From: an uncultured Desulfosarcina sp.
GTDB taxonomy: Bacteria; Desulfobacterota; Desulfobacteria; Desulfobacterales; Desulfosarcinaceae
DNA length: 64,000 nt
Assembly (NCBI GenBank): GCA_963674945.2
Contig: CAXXWQ010000001.1
Coordinates: forward strand, 160,001-224,000
Direction of reading: 5' to 3'
Position 1 is the stretch's first letter; each line of letters opens with the position of its first letter. The translations under genes and the position numbers were made by a program. Under the pieces are notes generated by a model. That model ran no database searches. It worked only from the letters and a program-made list of their open reading frames with translations, and had not been told where the DNA came from. Shown here in pieces: positions 43,477 through 53,576 of the stretch.

Positions 43477-45873
43477 CTACTGTCCGAAACCGCCGATTCC
43501 CAACAAGTTCACAAGGAAGGAAAACCTGGTGTCTTCTCCCTCCTTTTCGAGAAATAGATCGATGGACCAGCATTGGGCCGTATAAAGGAGGCCCACTCCC
43601 TTACTGATATCTTCCTTTTCCAAAAGATTTCTTTCGTATTCCCCGGTAAGGGCCAGGCGGTCGGTAACCATGACAAGAATTTGTGAATAGATGGATTCGG
43701 TGACCTCTTTCGTATAGCGATGCTCCACCAAAAAGCGGTCCCCCCGCCCATCGGCCGCCGTCGCATTTACGTTGTGACGGGTAAATCTCGCGTCGGACGG
43801 ATCGTACCGGCCGTCGGCCCCCAGGAGAAGATATCGCCCCAGGTTGACATCCAGTTCCCCATAGATCTCTGAAAAGGGCTCGGCCAGGCCCTTTTTTTCC
43901 CTGTTTTCCAACTCCTGGCTGTTGAAGTAGTAACTCTGCTCCAGGTAAAAGCGCAGGAAGCGGTTATAATCGAAGAGCGTCGGGATCGCGCTCTGGGTCG
44001 TCGACTCTTCCGACGGAAGAACGCCCAGCGGCAAAAGGCCCATTTTTGTCCCTGACTCCCGGTTCGATCCCATGGTTGCCTGGGCAGCCGCGTCGGCGGA
44101 TACGGAGGCTCCTTTCGATCGGGCCGTCAAGGTGTTGGTGAGTGCCCAGGTGATGCGATTTAGCCCTTCGATGCGGTCCAGTTGTGTGAATCTGGGCAGG
44201 TCCGACTGATCCTGGTCCGGGATGTATTCATAAATGAGTTGCGGTTTTATGCTGTGGCGCAACCGGTCCGCGGCAGAAACGGGAGAGGCCATCACCTTGG
44301 AAAACTCCGAGGAGAGATCGAGCCGGGCATCATAGATCTGACGAAAATGGGTGCGATCTTCCGTCTCGTCCTCCCATCTGTCCATGACCCAGGTGGTTTG
44401 TCGGAATCCCACCGACGGTTCGAGCGACAGGTAGTTTTCCCACCGCAGGGGCAGATAGGCCCGCGGGTAGAGGTCCGAACGATGTCCCCGACGATTGTTC
44501 CGATTTTCGTCCTGTCGATAAAAATAGGTGTACGCAACGTCCATGTCCCAGTAAATATTGCTGTCAAAGGCCTGCTGTTTCGCGGTACTGAAACCCAGGA
44601 CCGGCAGTCGCTGCAGGGTCATATCCTCTTGTTCCCACCGGCGGTTCGTCACGTTGTCGTTCCAAAGCAGATCGCCGTTGAAGGTGGCTTTCGACCAGGT
44701 CCGGTTGATGTTCAGCCGATTGGTGCGCGTGGATTCGTCGTAGGTGTCGATATCCCGTCCGAAGGTCGCCAGAAAGGCATCCCGGGTCTCATCGAAGCCG
44801 CTTCGTCCCTCCCTGAATTCGGTGAGGTAATCCTGGTCGCTGACGATGTCCAGATCGAGTTGGGCCGTCGCACCCAAGGGAAGTTCCTGGTCGATCTTCG
44901 CCCTTACCCAGTACCGGTCTGTGTTTGGACGGTCATAGCCATCTCCGGCGTATCCCCATGATTTCGTGTTTTCCGGTGTGCCGTCATCGATCTGTCGATC
45001 TTCGAAACCATCGGCCATGATCGTGCCGAATGCGTCTTCGGTGAGGGCGTAGCGATACTCGATGCCGAATTTGGTGCCGCGTTTTTCCATGTAGTGGGTG
45101 GTCAAGGTCGCATCGCTGCTGTCGTTGATGGCCCAAAACAGCGGCTGATCCCAAGAGATTCCCTTCCGGTCCGAATACCCCGCCTCGGGCAGGAGAAAGC
45201 CGGTTTGGCGCTTGGTTTTCGCCGGGAAAAAAAGATATGGGGTGTATAAGACCGGGACATCTTTCGCCTTGAACATGGCGTGGGTGGCGGTGCCGTATCC
45301 CTCGACGGTCACCGCCACGGTTCGGCCGGTGATGACCCAATCCGGCCGATCCCCGTCGCAGGTGGTGACGGCACCATTTTCCGCCCGATAGGTGTCCTTC
45401 CCCGTTTTTTCGATGCGTTCGCCGCGAATGAAGAAATGGTTCTGCTGTAAAAACAAGGTGCCATGGTGAACCACGCCGGTCTCACGGGTAAGGTCAAGTT
45501 TCAGCCGATCGCCGGTCAGGATATCTTTACCCACGGTCAACACTACATTCCCTTCGGCCGTAGCGGTCATGGCCCGATGGTTGAAATCGACGGTGTCGGC
45601 CACCATACGGGCCGCTTCTTTCTCGATGATTACATCCCCCCTGGCATGATAGGTGGATGATTCGGCATCGTAATCCACCGTGTCGGCGCTGATCTGCCAT
45701 GGGACACCGGGGGTGCCGGTGACCTGGTCGATGATGGACTGCGGATAGGCAATGGGCGGATGTGTCAGACAGCAGAGTATTCCGAGGAATAGGCAGAAGA
45801 ATTGAACCGATCGAAAGAAGGCAACGGGTAATGGTTTGCGCATGTACGGCCGTATGCATCGATGGGAAATCAA
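43477..45873 (-). CDS. lptD: LPS assembly protein LptD (start uncertain)
   Basis: OstA-like N-terminus (ISAD), TTC...PDW, KRQTGFLLP, beta-barrel ending AQCWS. Confidence 0.88.
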   Translation of the reverse strand: MISHRCIRPYMRKPLPVAFFRSVQFFCLFLGILCCLTHPPIAYPQSIIDQVTGTPGVPWQISADTVDYDAESSTYHARGDVIIEKEAARMVADTVDFNHRAMTATAEGNVVLTVGKDILTGDRLKLDLTRETGVVHHGTLFLQQNHFFIRGERIEKTGKDTYRAENGAVTTCDGDRPDWVITGRTVAVTVEGYGTATHAMFKAKDVPVLYTPYLFFPAKTKRQTGFLLPEAGYSDRKGISWDQPLFWAINDSSDATLTTHYMEKRGTKFGIEYRYALTEDAFGTIMADGFEDRQIDDGTPENTKSWGYAGDGYDRPNTDRYWVRAKIDQELPLGATAQLDLDIVSDQDYLTEFREGRSGFDETRDAFLATFGRDIDTYDESTRTNRLNINRTWSKATFNGDLLWNDNVTNRRWEQEDMTLQRLPVLGFSTAKQQAFDSNIYWDMDVAYTYFYRQDENRNNRRGHRSDLYPRAYLPLRWENYLSLEPSVGFRQTTWVMDRWEDETEDRTHFRQIYDARLDLSSEFSKVMASPVSAADRLRHSIKPQLIYEYIPDQDQSDLPRFTQLDRIEGLNRITWALTNTLTARSKGASVSADAAAQATMGSNRESGTKMGLLPLGVLPSEESTTQSAIPTLFDYNRFLRFYLEQSYYFNSQELENREKKGLAEPFSEIYGELDVNLGRYLLLGADGRYDPSDARFTRHNVNATAADGRGDRFLVEHRYTKEVTESIYSQILVMVTDRLALTGEYERNLLEKEDISKGVGLLYTAQCWSIDLFLEKEGEDTRFSFLVNLLGIGGFGQ

Positions 45874-46031
45874 AATACGGGAAACGGTGGCTTTCGTATG
45901 GGTGACGTTAGGGCGCGAAGGATAACCACTTGCACATATATCAAAAATTCAATATAAAGCTATCTTGTTTGAAATTGCAATAATAGTTTTGACGGGTTCT
46001 CTCGTTACTGAGGTGACAAACGAAGGATGCC

Positions 46032-46799
46032 ATGCGGGTATTGTTGACAAATGACGATGGAGTCTTCGCACCGGGATTGCGGGCGCTGTATGGCGCCTAC
46101 CGTGAAGATCACCAAGTGATTGTGGTGGCGCCGGATCGCGAGCGTAGCGCCATCGGGCACGCGATTACCCTGCACCAGCCACTTCGCTACGAGAAGACGC
46201 GTCTGGATTCGGACCTGACGGCCTTTGCGGTCAATGGTACGCCGGCCGACTGTGTGAAACTGGCGTTGGCAGAGATTCTTTCGGATCCACCCGATCTGGT
46301 CGTTTCCGGCGTAAACCCTGGTGCCAACGTGGGCATCAACATCAACTATTCGGGAACCGTGGCCGCCGCCAAGGAAGCCACCCTTGCCGGCATCCCCGCC
46401 CTTGCCGTATCCGTCACCGCCCCGGGTGGCAGGAATATGGATGGTGCAGCCAGATTCGCCGAATCCTTTTCCCGGCAGATGATGGAAAAGCCGTTTCCCA
46501 AAGGGACGTTTCTCAATGTCAACCTCCCCGACCTGCCGGCCGAAGAGATTCGCGGCATTCGTTGGTGCCGGCAGGGAAATGGCATGATCGCCCAGCAATT
46601 CGAAAAGAGGTGGGACCCGCGGAATCGGATCTATTACTGGCAGGGGGTCGACGACCAGCACGCCTATGACCAGCCGGACATCGACTGCGCCGCATTGGGC
46701 GACCAGTTTGTCACCATCACGCCCATCAAATGTGACATGACCGACTACGATACCTTGCAGGAGTTGGCCCAGTGGGAAATTTCCCTTCCCACTTCCTGA
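46032..46799 (+). CDS. surE: 5'/3'-nucleotidase SurE
   Basis: LLTNDDG, NGTPADCV, SGVNPGAN, SGTVAAA. Confidence 0.95.
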   Translation: MRVLLTNDDGVFAPGLRALYGAYREDHQVIVVAPDRERSAIGHAITLHQPLRYEKTRLDSDLTAFAVNGTPADCVKLALAEILSDPPDLVVSGVNPGANVGININYSGTVAAAKEATLAGIPALAVSVTAPGGRNMDGAARFAESFSRQMMEKPFPKGTFLNVNLPDLPAEEIRGIRWCRQGNGMIAQQFEKRWDPRNRIYYWQGVDDQHAYDQPDIDCAALGDQFVTITPIKCDMTDYDTLQELAQWEISLPTS

Positions 46800-46875
46800 C
46801 GACCTCTTTTTTGTCGAGTAAACTTGGTCCTCTGGGCCAGGTCAAAAAATAAATGGCTCTGGTGAATGCTTGTTA

Positions 46876-47011
46876 CAAGAATCCAGGAGTCAGAATTCAT
46901 ACGAGAATCCAGAATCAGGCATTCGCCTTCGGCTCGATCCATCTTATTCTATCGATGGCGCGACGCGACTTCAAATTCGTTCTGGCTCCTGTATTCTGGC
47001 TCCTGGATTCT
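46876..47011 (+). repeat. Repeat family D, full copy
   Basis: 19-bp inverted ends AGAATCCAGGAGTCAGAAT / ATTCTGGCTCCTGGATTCT (1 mismatch). Confidence 0.85.
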
Positions 47012-47104
47012 ACAGTTTCGAGCGATTATGGCATCCCCTTATAAGGGAGCTTACAGCCGGGATCTCTGAAACCGGATTTTTATTTCATTGCAACGGTGGA
47101 CCCG

Positions 47105-48058
47105 ATGACCAAGCGTTTTGTCTGTGAACTCGAGGCCGGCAGTGCCATCGACGATCTCTTTGTATTGGCTGAACGAAACATGGCCCACAAAAAAGATGGG
47201 AATCCTTTTTTGAATGTGACCCTGGCGGATCGTACCGGCCAGGTGAAAGGGGTCGTATGGGACCAGGTGGAGCGCATCAGTGAGGCGGCCAGTGAAGGCG
47301 ATTTCGTCCATGTCCGCGCCCAGATCGGAGAATACCGCGGGGCGTTGCAGCTGGTGGTCAAGGATATGGCCAGGGTTCCTGCGGATCAGGTAGATCCTGC
47401 GGATTTTCTTGCCACCACCGCCCGCGATATTTCCAAAATGGCGGACCGGCTCAAGGAGATGACCGATGGCATGCAGGCGCCCCACTTAAAAGCCCTCTTC
47501 GATGCCTTTTGGGGAGACGATGCGCTGGTGACATCCTTTTGCCGGGCCCCGGCGGCCAAGCATATGCACCATGCCTACATCGGCGGATTGCTCGAACATA
47601 CCCTCTCCATGGCTGTATTGGCGATCTCCATCGCCGGACATTACAGCGGCGTGGATCGGGATTTGCTCCTCGCCGGTGTGATCTTCCATGATCTGGGAAA
47701 GGTTCGGGAATTGGCATATGCCAACCGGATCGATTATACGGACGAGGGCCGCCTGCTCAGCCACATCGTTATCGGACTTTCCATTCTGGATGAGAAAATC
47801 CGGCAGATTCCCGATTTCCCCGAGACCCAGGCCAACCTGCTCAAACACATGGTCGTCAGTCATCACGGTTCACAGGAATTCGGTTCTCCCGAACCACCCA
47901 AGACCATCGAGGCGGTTCTGCTCAACTATATCGATGAGATTGATTCCAGGGTCAACAGCATCCGAGAGTACGTGGCCAAGGATCCGTCCGAAGGCACGTG
48001 GACGCCTTACCATCGGCTGTTGGAACGTCATTTTTATAAAGGTGAACAGAGCGATTAG
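47105..48058 (+). CDS. yhaM: 3'-5' exoribonuclease YhaM family (OB fold plus HD)
   Basis: LADRTG, PAAK.MHHAY.GGLLEH, HDLGK, SHHG. Confidence 0.9.
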   Translation: MTKRFVCELEAGSAIDDLFVLAERNMAHKKDGNPFLNVTLADRTGQVKGVVWDQVERISEAASEGDFVHVRAQIGEYRGALQLVVKDMARVPADQVDPADFLATTARDISKMADRLKEMTDGMQAPHLKALFDAFWGDDALVTSFCRAPAAKHMHHAYIGGLLEHTLSMAVLAISIAGHYSGVDRDLLLAGVIFHDLGKVRELAYANRIDYTDEGRLLSHIVIGLSILDEKIRQIPDFPETQANLLKHMVVSHHGSQEFGSPEPPKTIEAVLLNYIDEIDSRVNSIREYVAKDPSEGTWTPYHRLLERHFYKGEQSD

Positions 48059-48101
48059 CCGTTCGCTGTCGGCAATTGGCAGCATAACTTCAAAGGAAAC
48101 C

Positions 48102-48764
48102 ATGTTTATTACCCTGGAAGGCATCGAAGGTGCAGGCAAGACCACCCAGATCGAGAACATTGCCCGATGGCTGAAGGCCGCTGGTCACGATTTTCTGATC
48201 ACCCGGGAACCCGGTGGAACGCCCATCGGTGGGCAGATCCGTTCGATTCTCCTGCATCCGGAGAATCGGGACCTGGCACCCACGGCAGAACTGTTGCTCT
48301 ACATGGCGGACCGGGTCCAACACCTGGAAACCGTCATCCGTCCGGCACTGACCTCGGAAAAGGTGGTGGTTTGCGACCGTTATTTCGATGCAACGATGGT
48401 ATATCAGGGATACGCCAGGGGCCTGGATAAAGAGATGATCCGTCGGCTGCACCAGTTTACATGCGGCGGCTTTACGCCTTCACTCACCATTTTGTTGGAC
48501 CTGGACCCAGCGGCCGGTCTTTGCCGGGCATGGAAACGGATCGATACCGATGCCGACCATGCCAAAGAATCCCGATTCGAAGAGGAGAAAATGGCGTTCC
48601 ATCATCGTGTTCGGGACGGCTATCTGGATCTTGCCCGCCGGGAACCGGATCGTTTTGTCATCGTCGATGCCGCCGTCGATCCAGGTACCGTGCGCCGGCG
48701 AATCGAAACCGTGCTTTCTGAACGATTATCCCACAAAAAAATGAATCTTTCCCATGAGCCATAG
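48102..48764 (+). CDS. tmk: Thymidylate kinase
   Basis: EGIEGAGKTTQ, REPGGT, CDRY, YQG. Confidence 0.96.
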   Translation: MFITLEGIEGAGKTTQIENIARWLKAAGHDFLITREPGGTPIGGQIRSILLHPENRDLAPTAELLLYMADRVQHLETVIRPALTSEKVVVCDRYFDATMVYQGYARGLDKEMIRRLHQFTCGGFTPSLTILLDLDPAAGLCRAWKRIDTDADHAKESRFEEEKMAFHHRVRDGYLDLARREPDRFVIVDAAVDPGTVRRRIETVLSERLSHKKMNLSHEP

Positions 48765-51036
48765 CATTTTAGATCACATCGGCAATACCCCGTTGGTGGA
48801 GATTCGGCGGCTGAATCCCAATCCCAATGTTCGGGTGCTCGCAAAACTCGAGTATCTCAATCCCGGTGGCTCCATCAAGGACCGGCCGGCCCTTTCCATG
48901 ATCGAGGCCGGCGAGCGGTCCGGGGAACTTACGGCGGGAAAGACGGTGATCGAGGCCACCAGTGGAAACACGGGCATCGGTCTGGCCATGGTATGTTCCG
49001 TCAAGGGATACCGACTGCTTCTCGCCATGAGTGAGGCGGTCAGTGTGGAGCGGCAGAAGATCCTTCGGGCACGGGGCGCCGAGATTTTGCTGACGCCGGG
49101 TCATCTGGGGACCGACGGCGCCATCGAGGAGGTGTATCGGCTGGCCCGGGAAAATCCCGAGATCTATTTCATGACCGACCAGTACAACAATCCCGCCAAC
49201 TGGCAGGCCCATTACAACGGCACGGCAACGGAGCTGTGGAAACAGACGGACGGGGCAATGACCCACATGGTGGCGACCATGGGCACATCGGGGACCTTGA
49301 TGGGACTGTCCCGGAGACTGCACGAGTTCAATCCCGACATCCGGATCATCGGCGTGGAGCCCTATCTGGGCCACCGTCTCCAGGGACTGAAGAACATGCG
49401 GGAGGCCTACCAGCCGGAAATCTTCGAAAAACAGCTTCTCGACGAAAAGATCAACATCGAGGATGAGCCCGCATTCGAGATGACCCGTCGTCTGGCCAGA
49501 GAGGAGGGCCTCATGGTGGGCATGAGCAGCGGGGCCGCCATGGTCGTGGCCGCCCGACTGGCCGGGACCCTGGACAGCGGAACCGTGGTGGTGGTTTTCC
49601 CCGACGGGGGAGAACGCTATCTTTCCACATCGTTATTTTCCGTTCAGGAGAAGATCGATCTTTCCATCTTCAATACGATGACTCGAAAAAAGGAGCATTT
49701 CGAACCGATCACTCCCGGCAAGGTCTCCATTTACGCATGCGGTCCCACGGCCCATGCCCGGATGCACGTGGGGGAAGGGCGGCGTTTCGTTTTTGCCGAC
49801 CTTCTGGCACGGTACTTCACTTTTCGGGGCTTTGCGGTCAAGCAGGTGATGAACATCACCGACCAGGACGACAAGACCATCGAAGGTTCCCATCGAGCCG
49901 GCATGTCCCTGGAAGATTTTACTTCCATGCACATCGAGTCCTTTTACCGGGATCTTGCTACGCTGGGCATAAAGCCGGCGGATCATTATCCCAAAGCCAG
50001 CGAGCACACCGACGATATGGTGAAGCTGGCCAGCCAACTGGTTAACAAGGGATATGCCTACGAGAAGCTGCACTCCATCTATTTCGACATCTCCCGATAC
50101 AAGGAGTACGGACGATTGTCCGGGATCGATCTCGACAAGATCCGCATCGGCGCCACCGTGGATCTGGAAGAGTACGAAAAGGACAACCCCCGTGACTTTA
50201 CCCTGCTCAAACGGACCCGATTGTCGGAACTCAAACGGGGGATCTACACGAAAACCGACTGGGGCAACATGCGTCCCTCCTGGCATCTTCAATGTGCGAC
50301 CATGTCCATGCACCACCTGGGGGCGTACTACGATATTCACTGTGCCGGAAGGGAACTGGTCTTTCCCCACCATGAAAACGAAATTGCCATTGCCGGTGCG
50401 CTTACCGGAAAGACCCTGGCAAAATACTGGGTCCATTGTGACCGTGTGCTGGTGGATGGAAAGAAGGTGGATGAAGGGGAACCGCTCACCATTCAGGCGG
50501 TGTTGGACATGGGGTATTCGGGGCGCGAGATCCGGTTCTGGCTTTTATCGGTGAACTATCGAAAGCCGGTTCTCTTTTCCCGGGCACGCCTTACGCGTGT
50601 GAGAAAGACTTTGAAACGCCTGGATGCCTGTGTTCACGCCCTCAAACATGTCCGTCATGGAAATGCATGCCCGGATATCGATCAGCTGTGCTACGATATC
50701 AAAAACGGCTTTACGACCGCCATGGACGACGACCTGAACATTTCCGCGGCCATGGCCGCGATGTTCTCCGCCGTCAAACGGATCAATACGCTTATTTTAC
50801 ATGGTGACATCGACACCGACGGCGCCGGAAAAATTCTGGAGACGCTGGCCGGGATCAACCGTGTGCTCAATATCTTCGATTTCGAGGACGAAGCCGAAAA
50901 CCCCACCGTGCAGCAGTTGATCGAGCAGCGCATCCAGGCCCGAAAGGCCAAGGACTGGACATTGGCAGACCGTCTTCGGGCGCGTATCGAAGAGATGGGC
51001 GTGGTCGTGCGGGATGATAAGATCAATGATGCATGA
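48754..51036 (+). CDS. Fusion of cysteine synthase (CysK/CysM type) and cysteine--tRNA ligase-like domain
   Basis: N-part NPGGSIKDR, ATSGNTG, GTSGT; C-part YACGPT, NITD.DDK, DFTL.K, RPSWHLQC, FPHHENE, DDDLN, ADRLR. Confidence 0.92.
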   Translation: MSHSILDHIGNTPLVEIRRLNPNPNVRVLAKLEYLNPGGSIKDRPALSMIEAGERSGELTAGKTVIEATSGNTGIGLAMVCSVKGYRLLLAMSEAVSVERQKILRARGAEILLTPGHLGTDGAIEEVYRLARENPEIYFMTDQYNNPANWQAHYNGTATELWKQTDGAMTHMVATMGTSGTLMGLSRRLHEFNPDIRIIGVEPYLGHRLQGLKNMREAYQPEIFEKQLLDEKINIEDEPAFEMTRRLAREEGLMVGMSSGAAMVVAARLAGTLDSGTVVVVFPDGGERYLSTSLFSVQEKIDLSIFNTMTRKKEHFEPITPGKVSIYACGPTAHARMHVGEGRRFVFADLLARYFTFRGFAVKQVMNITDQDDKTIEGSHRAGMSLEDFTSMHIESFYRDLATLGIKPADHYPKASEHTDDMVKLASQLVNKGYAYEKLHSIYFDISRYKEYGRLSGIDLDKIRIGATVDLEEYEKDNPRDFTLLKRTRLSELKRGIYTKTDWGNMRPSWHLQCATMSMHHLGAYYDIHCAGRELVFPHHENEIAIAGALTGKTLAKYWVHCDRVLVDGKKVDEGEPLTIQAVLDMGYSGREIRFWLLSVNYRKPVLFSRARLTRVRKTLKRLDACVHALKHVRHGNACPDIDQLCYDIKNGFTTAMDDDLNISAAMAAMFSAVKRINTLILHGDIDTDGAGKILETLAGINRVLNIFDFEDEAENPTVQQLIEQRIQARKAKDWTLADRLRARIEEMGVVVRDDKINDA

Positions 51037-51083
51037 TGTTTTTATTCAGATCGAAAATCTGGTTCTCTATATCCGAATTTCCA

Positions 51084-51206
51084 GCGGCTTCGTAAAAAGT
51101 TCGAGATCAAGGATTACGAGCCCCGAGGAATGAGGCGTATACAGAAATACGTCGCAATGACGAGGGGCGAAGCGTAACGAAGATATCGGGCTTTTTACGA
51201 AGCCGC
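51084..51206 (+). repeat. Repeat family C copy
   Basis: Perfect 16-bp inverted ends GCGGCTTCGTAAAAAG / CTTTTTACGAAGCCGC. Confidence 0.9.
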
Positions 51207-51227
51207 CATCCATTGGAGAGAAGTAAG

Positions 51228-52214
51228 ATGAACGTAGCCTACATGCCCTTTACCCATATATCCGAATCCATTGCCCGGCGATTGTATGCCCTCGTCGGGC
51301 CCGTGGCGGTTTACCAGCCGATAAAAAGCAGGATTCCCGAAGCCCTGCCGGCCATGGCTGACGCGGGGCTCGTAGAGATACGAACGCCTGTCCCCCATGA
51401 CGAAGAGCGGCTGACCGCCGCGTTGCGGGAGTTTTTCAACTGGGCGCAGATGAATCCGGCATCTTCATCGGCCGGAGTCGGTTATTTCGGTGCGCGGCAG
51501 GGAACGGTTCCTTTTTTTGACGAAACCGTCATCAACCGGATCCGCACCGATATCCAGCATTATGGCGAATCCGATGGCCGTTCCGACGACCCCGATGCCC
51601 TCTTTCGTGCCCGGCTGTTTTTGGCCCTCGCCCAGGATAACGACATGACCGTCCATAGCCTCCAAAGGGACCTGGGAGAGTTCAGGGCCATGGAGCAGGC
51701 GTTCATCGAAAGCCTCGAAGACACCGACGAAACATCTTTTCGTCGGGGAATGGTGAAAAGCGGCGTGTGGGAGGAGGATGCCGGCGCCAGACACACCTTG
51801 CAGCGGCTTCGCTACTGGGGCACGCTGGCCGCCGTCGATTCGCCGCACATGATGGTGACCACCAGTCCGGCGGCAGTCGATGCCCTTTTGGAGCACCTGG
51901 GCGAGACCACCGGTTTGAAAAAATGGCATCAATGCGAGATTCCACTGCCAGAAGCGGATTCTCCTCCCGCATTGATGCCATATCTAAACGATCTGGCTGC
52001 CGCAACTTCCCCGGAAACGGCCGAACCATCCGAATTGGAGAGATGCATCGATAAGACGACCTCCGGCCCGGTCGCTCCCATGACCCTCTACCTTGCAGCC
52101 AATTGTACACCCGGTCAATTTATTGGGCAAATGATCGAAATATCGCCCCGGGAAGAAGAATGCCAGGGGACGGGACCTTGGCGGCATACCCTGATTCTTT
52201 TGGTTGCCAAGTAA
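51228..52214 (+). CDS. Hypothetical protein
   Basis: Long ORF with GGAG RBS; no recognised motif. Confidence 0.75.
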   Translation: MNVAYMPFTHISESIARRLYALVGPVAVYQPIKSRIPEALPAMADAGLVEIRTPVPHDEERLTAALREFFNWAQMNPASSSAGVGYFGARQGTVPFFDETVINRIRTDIQHYGESDGRSDDPDALFRARLFLALAQDNDMTVHSLQRDLGEFRAMEQAFIESLEDTDETSFRRGMVKSGVWEEDAGARHTLQRLRYWGTLAAVDSPHMMVTTSPAAVDALLEHLGETTGLKKWHQCEIPLPEADSPPALMPYLNDLAAATSPETAEPSELERCIDKTTSGPVAPMTLYLAANCTPGQFIGQMIEISPREEECQGTGPWRHTLILLVAK

Positions 52215-52396
52215 AGAAAAATTCCTTCAAATGCCCAACTGACGTGGGATTGCGGTCTGGTCTGGTGATCGTTGAAAAAAACGGTTTCAACGCTTGACTG
52301 GGTGTTTCATTTGGTATAAGGCCTTTTCATGTTGATGACTTTAAATGTTGATAATTGGATCAGCATGAATAAACTTATTGAAAGGAGATCAAAGAG

Positions 52397-52585
52397 ATGG
52401 CTTTTAACCCGATCGTAGATGAGTCCAAATGCGTTGGCTGCGAAGAGTGCGTCGATGTTTGTCCCGTTGAAGTATTCGAAATGCAAGACGAAAAATCCGT
52501 TCCGGTCAACGCGGAAGAGTGTCTCGGTTGTGAGAGCTGCGTCGAAGTTTGTGAAGAAGGCGCCATCACCGTCGAAGAGACCTAA
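52397..52585 (+). CDS. 2[4Fe-4S] ferredoxin
   Basis: CVGCEECVDVCP, CLGCESCVEVC; AAAGGAG RBS. Confidence 0.95.
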   Translation: MAFNPIVDESKCVGCEECVDVCPVEVFEMQDEKSVPVNAEECLGCESCVEVCEEGAITVEET

Positions 52586-52610
52586 TTTTCTCGATTCCGA
52601 ATTGATTTTC

Positions 52611-52651
52611 AAACCCCCATCGGCATATTGTGCTGACGGGGGTTTTCTTTT
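52611..52651 (+). terminator. Intrinsic terminator after ferredoxin
   Basis: AAACCCCC-ATCGGCA...TGCTGAC-GGGGGTTT stem followed by TCTTTT. Confidence 0.8.
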
Positions 52652-52712
52652 GCCTGTACCGGGCGTTTCAAATTTTCTCGAACAAATCACCTTTTGACGG
52701 GAGGGGCGGATC

Positions 52713-53225
52713 ATGTATCATTATCAAATTGTCGATACTTCCTTTGGATTTGCCGCCGTGGTCTTTGGTGTCGATCCTTTTCGTCTCGTCGAAGTCAGAC
52801 TGCCCCGAACCGACGTCCAATCCCTTCATCACGCCTTCGATGAACGGTCGTGGCAGATGTCTCCCCATCACGATCTGGCAAATGAGATCGCTTCCCTTCT
52901 GGCCAACTATTTTGAGGGGCAACCAATCCATATTCCCTGGTCGGTGATGGATCTTTCCCGCTTTACCCCGGCCCAGCAGGAGGTGTATCGGGCGGTGGCA
53001 ACAATCCCCTATGGCCGGACCGCATCCTACAGCCAGGTGGCCCGCATGGCCAACCTCCCCCGTGCCGCACGCTTCGTGGGGACGACCATGGCGAAAAACG
53101 CCTATCCGGTTTTCATTCCCTGCCATCGTGTGATCCGAAGCGACGGTTCGGTCGGCAAGTTTGGCGGCGGATCGGAGCTGAAGGAGAAGATGCTCGCCCT
53201 GGAGGGGTGGGAGGGAAAAGGGTAA
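52713..53225 (+). CDS. ogt: Methylated-DNA--protein-cysteine methyltransferase
   Basis: IPYG...SY, AARFVG, IPCHRV. Confidence 0.93.
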   Translation: MYHYQIVDTSFGFAAVVFGVDPFRLVEVRLPRTDVQSLHHAFDERSWQMSPHHDLANEIASLLANYFEGQPIHIPWSVMDLSRFTPAQQEVYRAVATIPYGRTASYSQVARMANLPRAARFVGTTMAKNAYPVFIPCHRVIRSDGSVGKFGGGSELKEKMLALEGWEGKG

Positions 53226-53234
53226 GGCGGCCCC

Positions 53235-53363
53235 AAACGTGCCGACTATGAACTTTATGCCCGCCCGAATTTACCCATCGCCGTCATTGAAGTGAAGCGC
53301 AATATGTTCAAGATAGACCATGGTATGCAGCAGGCTTTGGCCTATGCGGAGATGCTGGATGCC
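53235..53363 (+). pseudogene. Fragment of a type I restriction subunit R (HsdR) nuclease domain
   Basis: Hand translation KRADYELYARPNLPIAVIEVKRN...GMQQALAYAEMLD (D..ExK and QxxxY motifs); no start codon. Confidence 0.75.
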
Positions 53364-53576
53364 TTGACTTACCTTCCAGAGGTTGCCGGGTGTGCCAATT
53401 TTATCAATACCGATCTGATCGCCGCAGAATTGTCGCCGTTGGCGCCGAACCGGTAAATCCTTGCGGCCAGCAGGTTGCTTCTGAAGAAGATTGCGTCACG
53501 CATCGGACAAAGAGAGGACTTTGCCTTTGAAACCACACTGACCGGCCGTGGATCGCTGTATCTGCTGCATGAATGA
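53364..53576 (+). pseudogene. Fragment of a zeta-toxin-like/AAA ATPase
   Basis: TYLPEVAGCANFINTDLIAAELSPLAP, in-frame TAA at 53454, then ASRLLL...[11 protein letters not shown]. Confidence 0.7.

Follow-up and report, generated by a model that had tools for sequence, protein, structure and literature searches.

What does a cysteinyl-tRNA synthetase (CysRS) with degenerate ATP-binding motifs do when it is fused to a cysteine synthase? This question is raised by a gene of an uncultured Desulfosarcina sp., located in a stretch of 64,000 nucleotides of contig CAXXWQ010000001.1 (hereafter the window). Positions 48754-51036 of the plus strand form a single open reading frame (ORF) of 760 residues. 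An earlier note on this DNA had described it as a complete pyridoxal-phosphate (PLP) synthase with a GSIKDR motif joined to a CysRS, and the ORF, its motifs and its Pfam and NCBIfam matches agree with that description. The fusion is real and widespread, and it appears to be mis-annotated and undescribed. The explanation we favour, with confidence just short of even, is that a pseudo-CysRS on an intact CysM-type synthase serves as a regulator that binds tRNA-Cys and cysteine, in the manner of HisZ or GCN2. The features below are used throughout. Counts out of 89 refer to the family set, which consists of the query and 88 loci with duplicate genomes and short copies dropped, and E. coli CysRS numbering is taken from the alignment to 1LI5.

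48754..51036, + strand: CysM-type cysteine synthase fused to a catalytically decayed CysRS, 760 residues (ORF, Pfam, NCBIfam, AlphaFold2 model)
48754..49641, + strand: PLP fold-type II cysteine synthase domain, residues 1-296 (PALP; TIGR01136 above cut-off; K42, TSGN 69-72, GTSGT, S259)
48877..48879, + strand: K42 in GSIKDR, which starts at residue 39 (K42 in 89/89 fusions)
49381..49398, + strand: QGLKNM loop with K213 (alignment to CysM structures; K213 in 89/89)
49615..49659, + strand: inter-domain linker, residues 288-302 (predicted local distance difference test, pLDDT, below 50 at 288-299; bridged by contigs)
49660..50613, + strand: CysRS-like Rossmann and connective-peptide (CP) domain, residues 303-620 (PF01406; Foldseek)
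49738..49740, + strand: zinc ligand C329, E. coli C28 (78/89)
50293-50295, + strand: zinc ligand C514 (82/89)
50368-50370, + strand: zinc ligand H539 (88/89)
50380-50382, + strand: zinc ligand E543 (65/89)
49765..49785, + strand: decayed HIGH motif, HVGE at 338-341, followed by R343 (E. coli R42) and the fusion-specific R344
50209..50241, + strand: fusion-specific basic motif KRxxLxELKxG, residues 486-496, in the CP domain
50461..50475, + strand: KKVDE, remnant of the KMSKS loop, with the second lysine replaced by Glu574
50614..50898, + strand: helical bundle (Pfam DALR_2); N662 corresponds to E. coli N351
50899..51033, + strand: anticodon-binding domain with R726, R730, W735, D739, R742 and D754 (1LI5 alignment)

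All motifs named beforehand are present, with GSIKDR starting at residue 39, YACG at 327, HVGE at 338, WHLQC at 510, PHHENE at 538 and KKVDE at 570. Pfam places PALP at residues 5-284 and tRNA-synt_1e (PF01406) at 316-616, with DALR_2 and CysS_C in addition, and NCBIfam covers residues 5-295 with a cysteine synthase model and 303-756 with a full CysRS model. Both models pass their cut-offs: cysKM (TIGR01136) scores 357 bits vs 344, and cysS (TIGR00435) 356 bits vs 340. The AlphaFold2 model, built from a 101-row alignment, has a mean pLDDT of 89.7 and a predicted TM-score (pTM) of 0.75. Its CysRS part matches 8QHP, the top hit among solved structures, and 1U0B in Foldseek (TM 0.91 and 0.85, normalised by target), and the model also matches CysK/CysM structures, including 2JC3/2BHS. 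The earlier note had named a stop or frameshift at the junction as a ground for refutation. Contigs of runs X1, X2 and X3 bridge positions 49615-49659 with zero mismatches or indels, although X1 and X2 come from a single sample, possibly the assembly's own source. We rejected an assembly artefact on this basis, and because the same single ORF recurs in about 200 other genomes. The nearest named relatives are Desulfosarcina proteins of about 80% identity, annotated as cysteine--tRNA ligase.

We then compared the synthetase half with active enzymes. E. coli HIGH (37-40) aligns to HVGE and KMSKS (266-270) to KVDE plus a gap, which bears out the motif replacements read from the sequence before. 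His40 is replaced by Glu, the first KMSKS lysine is retained (K571), the second is Glu574, and the GGG loop of the E. coli enzyme reads CAG. HVGE is not a new conserved motif, as its fourth position varies freely (E in 31, L in 12, V in 10 and N in 7 fusions); HxGH occurs in only one of the 89. KMSK is found in none of them, KMSRS in 15, and some lack the entire loop. Because adenylation by a class I synthetase needs the HIGH and KMSKS motifs, the suggestion that newly made cysteine is channelled to tRNA finds no support for this protein. The companion suggestion of a repurposed synthetase paralog fared better, given that the ATP motifs are lost across the family and a canonical cysS is present in the genome. 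Judged by these motifs, the fusion protein falls outside the active CysRS family.

What stayed constant is different. The zinc ligands (C28, C209, H234 and E238 in E. coli numbering) were correctly reported as intact in this protein, but they are no family constant: all four occur in only 61 fusions, and one or both zinc cysteines are lost in lineages L067-L072 and L081. Conversely, R343 and Y602 are present in 89/89, H511 in 87, W510 in 85 and N662 in 82. Conservation in the anticodon domain is similarly high, with R726 (E. coli R423) in 88, R730 (R427) in 85, an aromatic residue (W/F/Y) at 735 (W432) in 88, and D739 (D436), R742 (R439) and D754 (D451) in 88 each. We presume the roles of the aligned E. 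coli residues beyond R427, W432, D436 and R439. These four are given as anticodon-domain residues in the accessible text of PMC13449415, and the available part of 10.1101/2025.02.14.638259 describes communication between anticodon and active site in CysRS. Residues specific to the fusions were found as well. R344 is present in 89/89, where 26 HIGN-type CysRS have T, A, S or Y, and KRxxLxELKxG occurs in 88 of the fusions, in 0/26 HIGN-type CysRS and in none of 39 housekeeping CysRS. Three further candidates for fusion-only residues (K438, S441 and Y474) were rejected as inherited after comparison with the HIGN-type enzymes. The mean pairwise identity of the fused CysRS part is 43% vs 53% for housekeeping CysRS from the same 38 genomes, which indicates that the fused domain is constrained. 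From these alignments, what the family keeps constant is the predicted tRNA-facing surface; ATP handling is not kept, and the cysteine site not in every lineage.

In the synthase half, K42, S70, N72 and K213 are invariant (89/89). We take K42 to be the PLP Schiff-base lysine, and the TSGN loop of such synthases binds the free alpha-carboxylate. Its motifs show the N-domain to be a CysM-type cysteine synthase that is still intact. K213 aligns without gaps both with R220 of M. tuberculosis CysM (LRNM) and with R210 of Salmonella/E. coli CysM. It cannot decide the substrate, because a basic residue is common to the R220 enzyme and to the CysM that uses O-acetylserine. The role of R220 in phosphate binding is our assumption, for which a literature search gave no confirmation. 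Gene content is more informative in this respect (see below), and suggests that the N-domain probably uses O-phosphoserine (or serine) with sulfide and so escapes feedback on CysE. SerA was found in 5/5 genomes tested and canonical SerC above its cut-off in 2/5, while an aminotransferase-like gene flanks serA in all four loci read.

As fusions had been expected in related genomes, we determined how widespread they are. A match spanning the junction was found in 105/121 genomes of the order, a few of them cut by contig ends or frameshifts, and in 104/251 genomes of an evenly drawn sample across the phylum, which the names of matches indicate to be Desulfobacterota. Named matches in a scan of 1/64 parts include Desulforapulum, Desulfatibacillum, Desulfobulbus, Desulfocapsa, Desulfovibrionaceae, Caldimicrobium and one Polyangiaceae bin. 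In one genome (G286, L093:3884-7948) the fusion forms the C-terminal part of a 1354-residue ORF, the first 569 residues of which have no Pfam match at 1e-8.

For paralogs and pathway genes, we selected 80 genomes with the fusion by hand, with a view to divergence and completeness; eight of these were chosen for showing just two matches, which biases the set towards genomes without a second cysK. At least two PF01406 matches were found in 79/80, whereas for G160 the stand-alone CysRS alone was listed. This answers the earlier proposal to look for a second, canonical cysS, and the idea of the fusion as sole CysRS was rejected. All 39 stand-alone CysRS inspected (38 fetched genes and that of the Desulfosarcina genome) have HxGH and KMSKS. 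The Desulfosarcina copy (HVGH, KMSKS) is flanked by ispF and uvrB, and the genome also has a cysE-cysK pair (these names being taken from translations). The fusion is a paralog in its own genome, since both the canonical cysS and the cysE-cysK pair exist there. This genome has two tRNA-Cys(GCA) genes; the second, divergent one directly follows a broken cysK fragment in a polysaccharide gene cluster (L002:8681-9192, G000:C4). A third CysRS (HLGN, KMAKS) was observed in family f113 genomes (L225:3050-5248 and L226:3005-5191), with a fused C-terminal domain that, by its sequence, looks like a family 2 glycosyltransferase.

The serine acetyltransferase gene cysE was searched with TIGR01172 at E 1e-25, dropping 22 phylum-sample genomes below 90% completeness. 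It was not found in 50/94 fusion-positive vs 32/135 fusion-negative genomes (at least 90% complete; related genomes are not independent). Among the hand-picked genomes, 41 lack cysE, and in 38 of these the fusion is the sole CysK/M match. MetX was found in 4/41, MetA in 0/41, and a Mec-type (Prok-JAB) JAB protein in 3/41, each time alongside a second CysM. That leaves 34/41 carriers, several of them closed genomes, with the fusion alone as CysK/M and without detected MetX, MetA or Mec, which suggests that the N-domain is probably CysE-independent. A carrier route through CysO and Mec was rejected, as Mec was not found in 38/41; the Desulfosarcina genome itself has one weak, unlinked Mec-type JAB match. 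No carrier genes were seen in the neighbourhoods read, and CysO/MoeZ were not searched genome-wide.

Genomic neighbourhoods provided few further clues. Among 68 neighbours scanned only the upstream tmk is conserved, within the order. A cysS gene was not linked to the fusion in the neighbourhoods read. An RNA leader was rejected, as the start of the fusion overlaps tmk by 11 nt and 45500-53500 has no Rfam match. Downstream lies a gene of 333 residues (51213-52214) without Pfam or NCBIfam match, and at L103, L104 and L106 same-strand genes of 325-367 residues without Pfam match likewise follow the fusion. Between the fusion and its downstream gene is an element of 125-135 bp with terminal inverted repeats (51075-51210). 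It resembles a miniature inverted-repeat transposable element or a repetitive extragenic palindrome, and has 138 blastn matches in the genome, including itself, and no Rfam match.

Relatives of the two halves also occur apart. Among the 32 genomes that lack both fusion and cysE, 29 have a CysK/M. Seven have a stand-alone GLKNM enzyme that ends in CxxCPP, without Mec. In about nine, a GLKH enzyme is encoded next to genes that resemble CysO, Mec or MoeZ (partners named from translations). The occurrence of the GLKNM enzymes in these seven genomes suggests that the CysRS part is probably dispensable for catalysis. The synthase C-terminus probably takes exchangeable modules, a CxxCPP tail in some lineages and a pseudo-CysRS in others. 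Stand-alone GLKNM synthases with the conserved tail were observed at L121, L125, L128, L153, L177 and L227-L233. Split forms include the stand-alone pseudo-CysRS clusters P0248 (58 members) and P0253 and a 305-residue GLKSLK CysM (P0170), and stand-alone CysM relatives nest among fusion sequences in trees. The records of P0397 and P0412 each name an 8136-nt contig, so that the two may be adjacent. When a metagenome scan was made for the surroundings of split forms, the single close locus that it gave was a full fusion.

CysM-CysRS fusions of 760-804 residues were also found in 18 archaeal clusters (P0249, P0421-P0437), which, where named, belong to Nanoarchaeota, Nanobdellota or Woesearchaeota. 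They combine a GLK[NS] CysM with HxGN, GWHxEC, PHHxNE and KMSKS in 18/18, and their CysRS shares 64-76% identity with stand-alone archaeal CysRS. It clusters with HIGN-type enzymes and away from the pseudo-CysRS group; the latter is likewise separate from the host's cysS. A test of one shared origin of bacterial and archaeal fusions against two gave a p-AU of 0.30. Their intact motifs make the archaeal fusions candidates for a true make-and-charge enzyme, and the channelling proposed before may apply to them.

How could an apparently inactive synthetase serve a cysteine synthase? In the regulator that we favour, the N-domain would combine sulfide with an acceptor that does not depend on CysE, and so make free cysteine. 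O-phosphoserine supplied by SerA/SerC is the most likely acceptor, and serine a less likely one. According to the portion of PMC9547175 available, cysteine feedback normally targets CysE. In sulfide-filled cells this route would bypass that feedback, and control would therefore have to sit on the synthase itself. The pseudo-CysRS, located where relatives have the CxxCPP tail, would supply the missing control. Its anticodon domain, its helical bundle and the acceptor side would bind uncharged tRNA-Cys, and in most lineages its zinc site would bind cysteine as well. Uncharged tRNA might then switch the synthase on and cysteine damp it, although the sign of regulation is a guess. We infer all functional steps of this sensor, including activity, binding and regulation. 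It is possible, if somewhat less than evenly probable, that the protein is a CysE-independent synthase that uses a dead class I synthetase to read tRNA-Cys charging directly, or that cysteine is even formed on the tRNA itself.

Several observations weigh against this reading. CysE is not missing from all carriers: 44/94 fusion genomes keep cysE, including the Desulfosarcina genome with its cysE-cysK pair. A diverged cysE could escape the threshold of E 1e-25, and kinship among the genomes affects this comparison too. Of five stand-alone CxxCPP carriers from the 1/64 scan, four have cysE. K213 occupies the R220 site equally as it does that of R210, and it is Lys, not Arg. Trees did not group the N-domain with the CysO-operon enzymes, and their deep branches leave the relations among these CysM groups open. 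The linker has low confidence in the AlphaFold2 model, so that any physical coupling of the domains is putative. Finally, the 15 members with KMSRS might retain weak activity.

The constancy of the tRNA-contact residues, higher than that of the cysteine and zinc site, would also be expected if the pseudo-CysRS held seryl-, phosphoseryl- or cysteinyl-tRNA-Cys while the PLP domain converted the amino acid on the tRNA, as a bacterial counterpart of SepCysS/SelA. New invariant basic residues in the catalytic and CP domains (R344, R487, K494), the absence of CysE from many carriers and the existence of both halves as split forms fit this as well. Yet the TSGN loop, which binds a free alpha-carboxylate, is intact in 89/89, and close stand-alone GLKNM enzymes without a tRNA domain exist in cysE-less genomes. 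No charging enzyme for the intermediate was identified, though none was searched for. We consider tRNA-dependent chemistry unlikely. A tether or scaffold that keeps uncharged tRNA-Cys or the housekeeping CysRS near the synthase for local charging, without allostery, is decidedly unlikely. The conserved anticodon domain agrees with it, and the apparently active archaeal fusion of the same layout suggests a use in coupling synthesis to charging. However, a domain that covers the anticodon would presumably compete with CysRS for the same surface, and the neighbourhoods read show no linkage between cysS and the fusion.

The fusion is retained beside cysE-cysK in its own genome, and its CysM-type loop carries a basic residue at the position of R210, which is thought to bind thiosulfate according to the available text of PMC9547175. 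Both points could suit another sulfur compound, with the synthase making or using cysteine persulfide, making S-sulfocysteine from thiosulfate, or desulfhydrating cysteine, and the C-domain sensing or delivering the compound. This is improbable, as the fusion is the sole CysK/M in 38/41 cysE-less genomes, which would leave these with no other recognised cysteine route, and a cysteate synthase model scores 220 vs a cut-off of 600. Very improbable in our view is a CysRS that is divergent but still active and loads tRNA-Cys with cysteine channelled to it by the synthase half. While all four zinc ligands, W510 and the anticodon residues are intact in this protein, K571 is retained and TIGR00435 is above its cut-off, His40 and the second KMSKS lysine are both Glu and GGG is CAG. 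These positions drift across the family, and a canonical cysS accompanies the fusion. It is hardly credible that the CysRS part persists neutrally as the relic of a formerly active fusion. Its catalytic motifs are degenerate, stand-alone CysM relatives nest among the fusions and truncation or a frameshift affects a few copies (G136, G065, G109), but about 460 residues have been kept in about 200 genomes across the phylum, including genomes of 1.5-2 Mb, and invariant residues were gained.

If the favoured explanation is correct, the fusion would fill a gap in cysteine biosynthesis of sulfate reducers and relatives without CysE, MetX and MetA, and would serve many Desulfobacterota as their main source of cysteine. 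The common annotation as cysteine--tRNA ligase would need correcting. The pseudo-synthetase regulators would also gain a class I member, one in which the target of the tRNA is a metabolic enzyme and not transcription or a kinase. An amino-acid biosynthetic enzyme would then be under the control of its own tRNA, with the archaeal make-and-charge fusion as its active counterpart. This archaeal fusion, which looks active, can serve as a natural control, as can the split forms and the stand-alone enzymes with a CxxCPP tail.

No description of the fusion was found in the full-text literature, including PMC2922099, PMC9855970, PMC7311316 and PMC13759103, a search that most subscription papers fall outside, so we compared it with the systems nearest to it. 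With class I CysRS (E. coli CysS 1LI5/1U0B; 8QHP) it shares fold, domain order, zinc ligands and anticodon residues. It differs in the decayed HIGH, KMSKS and GGG, the new RR and KRxxLxELKxG, the fused CysM and the canonical cysS alongside. The fused CysRS has DDKTI and YEK features in common with the HIGN-type enzymes and stands apart from the host's HIGH-type cysS. CARS2-type cysteine persulfide synthases have the lysine motifs KIIK and KMSK, where the fusion reads KTIE and KVDE. Identity with MshC was rejected, as TIGR03447 scores 169 bits vs a cut-off of 485 and the anticodon domain, which MshC lacks, is present. CysRS* of the selC*/selB* system in Desulfobacterales is likewise a second cysS copy in the same order. 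As far as the accessible text of PMC5389517 goes, it has no anticodon domain, its gene lies behind selB* and it is proposed to charge a UCA-tRNA. Identity with CysRS* was rejected, because the fusion keeps its anticodon domain, has lost its ATP motifs and is encoded behind tmk, with an unknown gene as its other neighbour. A selC*-type tRNA (UCA anticodon, A1:U72, U73) was observed in the Desulfosarcina genome directly upstream of a selB-like gene (L005:5737-7794, G000:C3, minus strand), an arrangement as in the part of PMC5389517 available. In spite of this tRNA, tblastn did not find cysS* in this 98.7% complete genome.

Of the synthases, M. tuberculosis CysM (3DKI), described in the available part of PMC9547175 as an O-phosphoserine sulfhydrylase that works with CysO, Mec and MoeZ, has LRNM where the fusion has LKNM, with a basic residue at R220 in both, and the lack of CysE in many fusion carriers is a further likeness. 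The fusion differs in its Lys for Arg, and 38/41 cysE-less carriers have no detected Mec. E. coli/Salmonella CysM (OASS-B, 2JC3/2BHS) has the same fold and a gap-free loop that places K213 at R210. It differs from the fusion in that many fusion carriers have no recognisable serine acetyltransferase, and in the pseudo-CysRS at the C-terminus. SepRS/SepCysS have folds unrelated to those of the fusion. This system likewise couples a PLP sulfur-insertion enzyme with tRNA-Cys, and the text of PMC5424206, as far as available, mentions no CysM, CysK or such a fusion.

HisZ is listed among synthetase paralogs in the accessible portion of PMC9437257. Judged by sequence only, the fusion is like HisZ and GCN2 in that a non-charging synthetase paralog is joined to another enzyme, beside a canonical copy. 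HisZ is a HisRS paralog without anticodon domain that acts as the regulatory subunit of HisG, while GCN2 carries a HisRS-like domain and controls a kinase. The likeness to HisZ extends to the partner, which is a biosynthetic enzyme of the same amino acid. Unlike these two, which have class II HisRS folds, the fusion described here has a class I fold.

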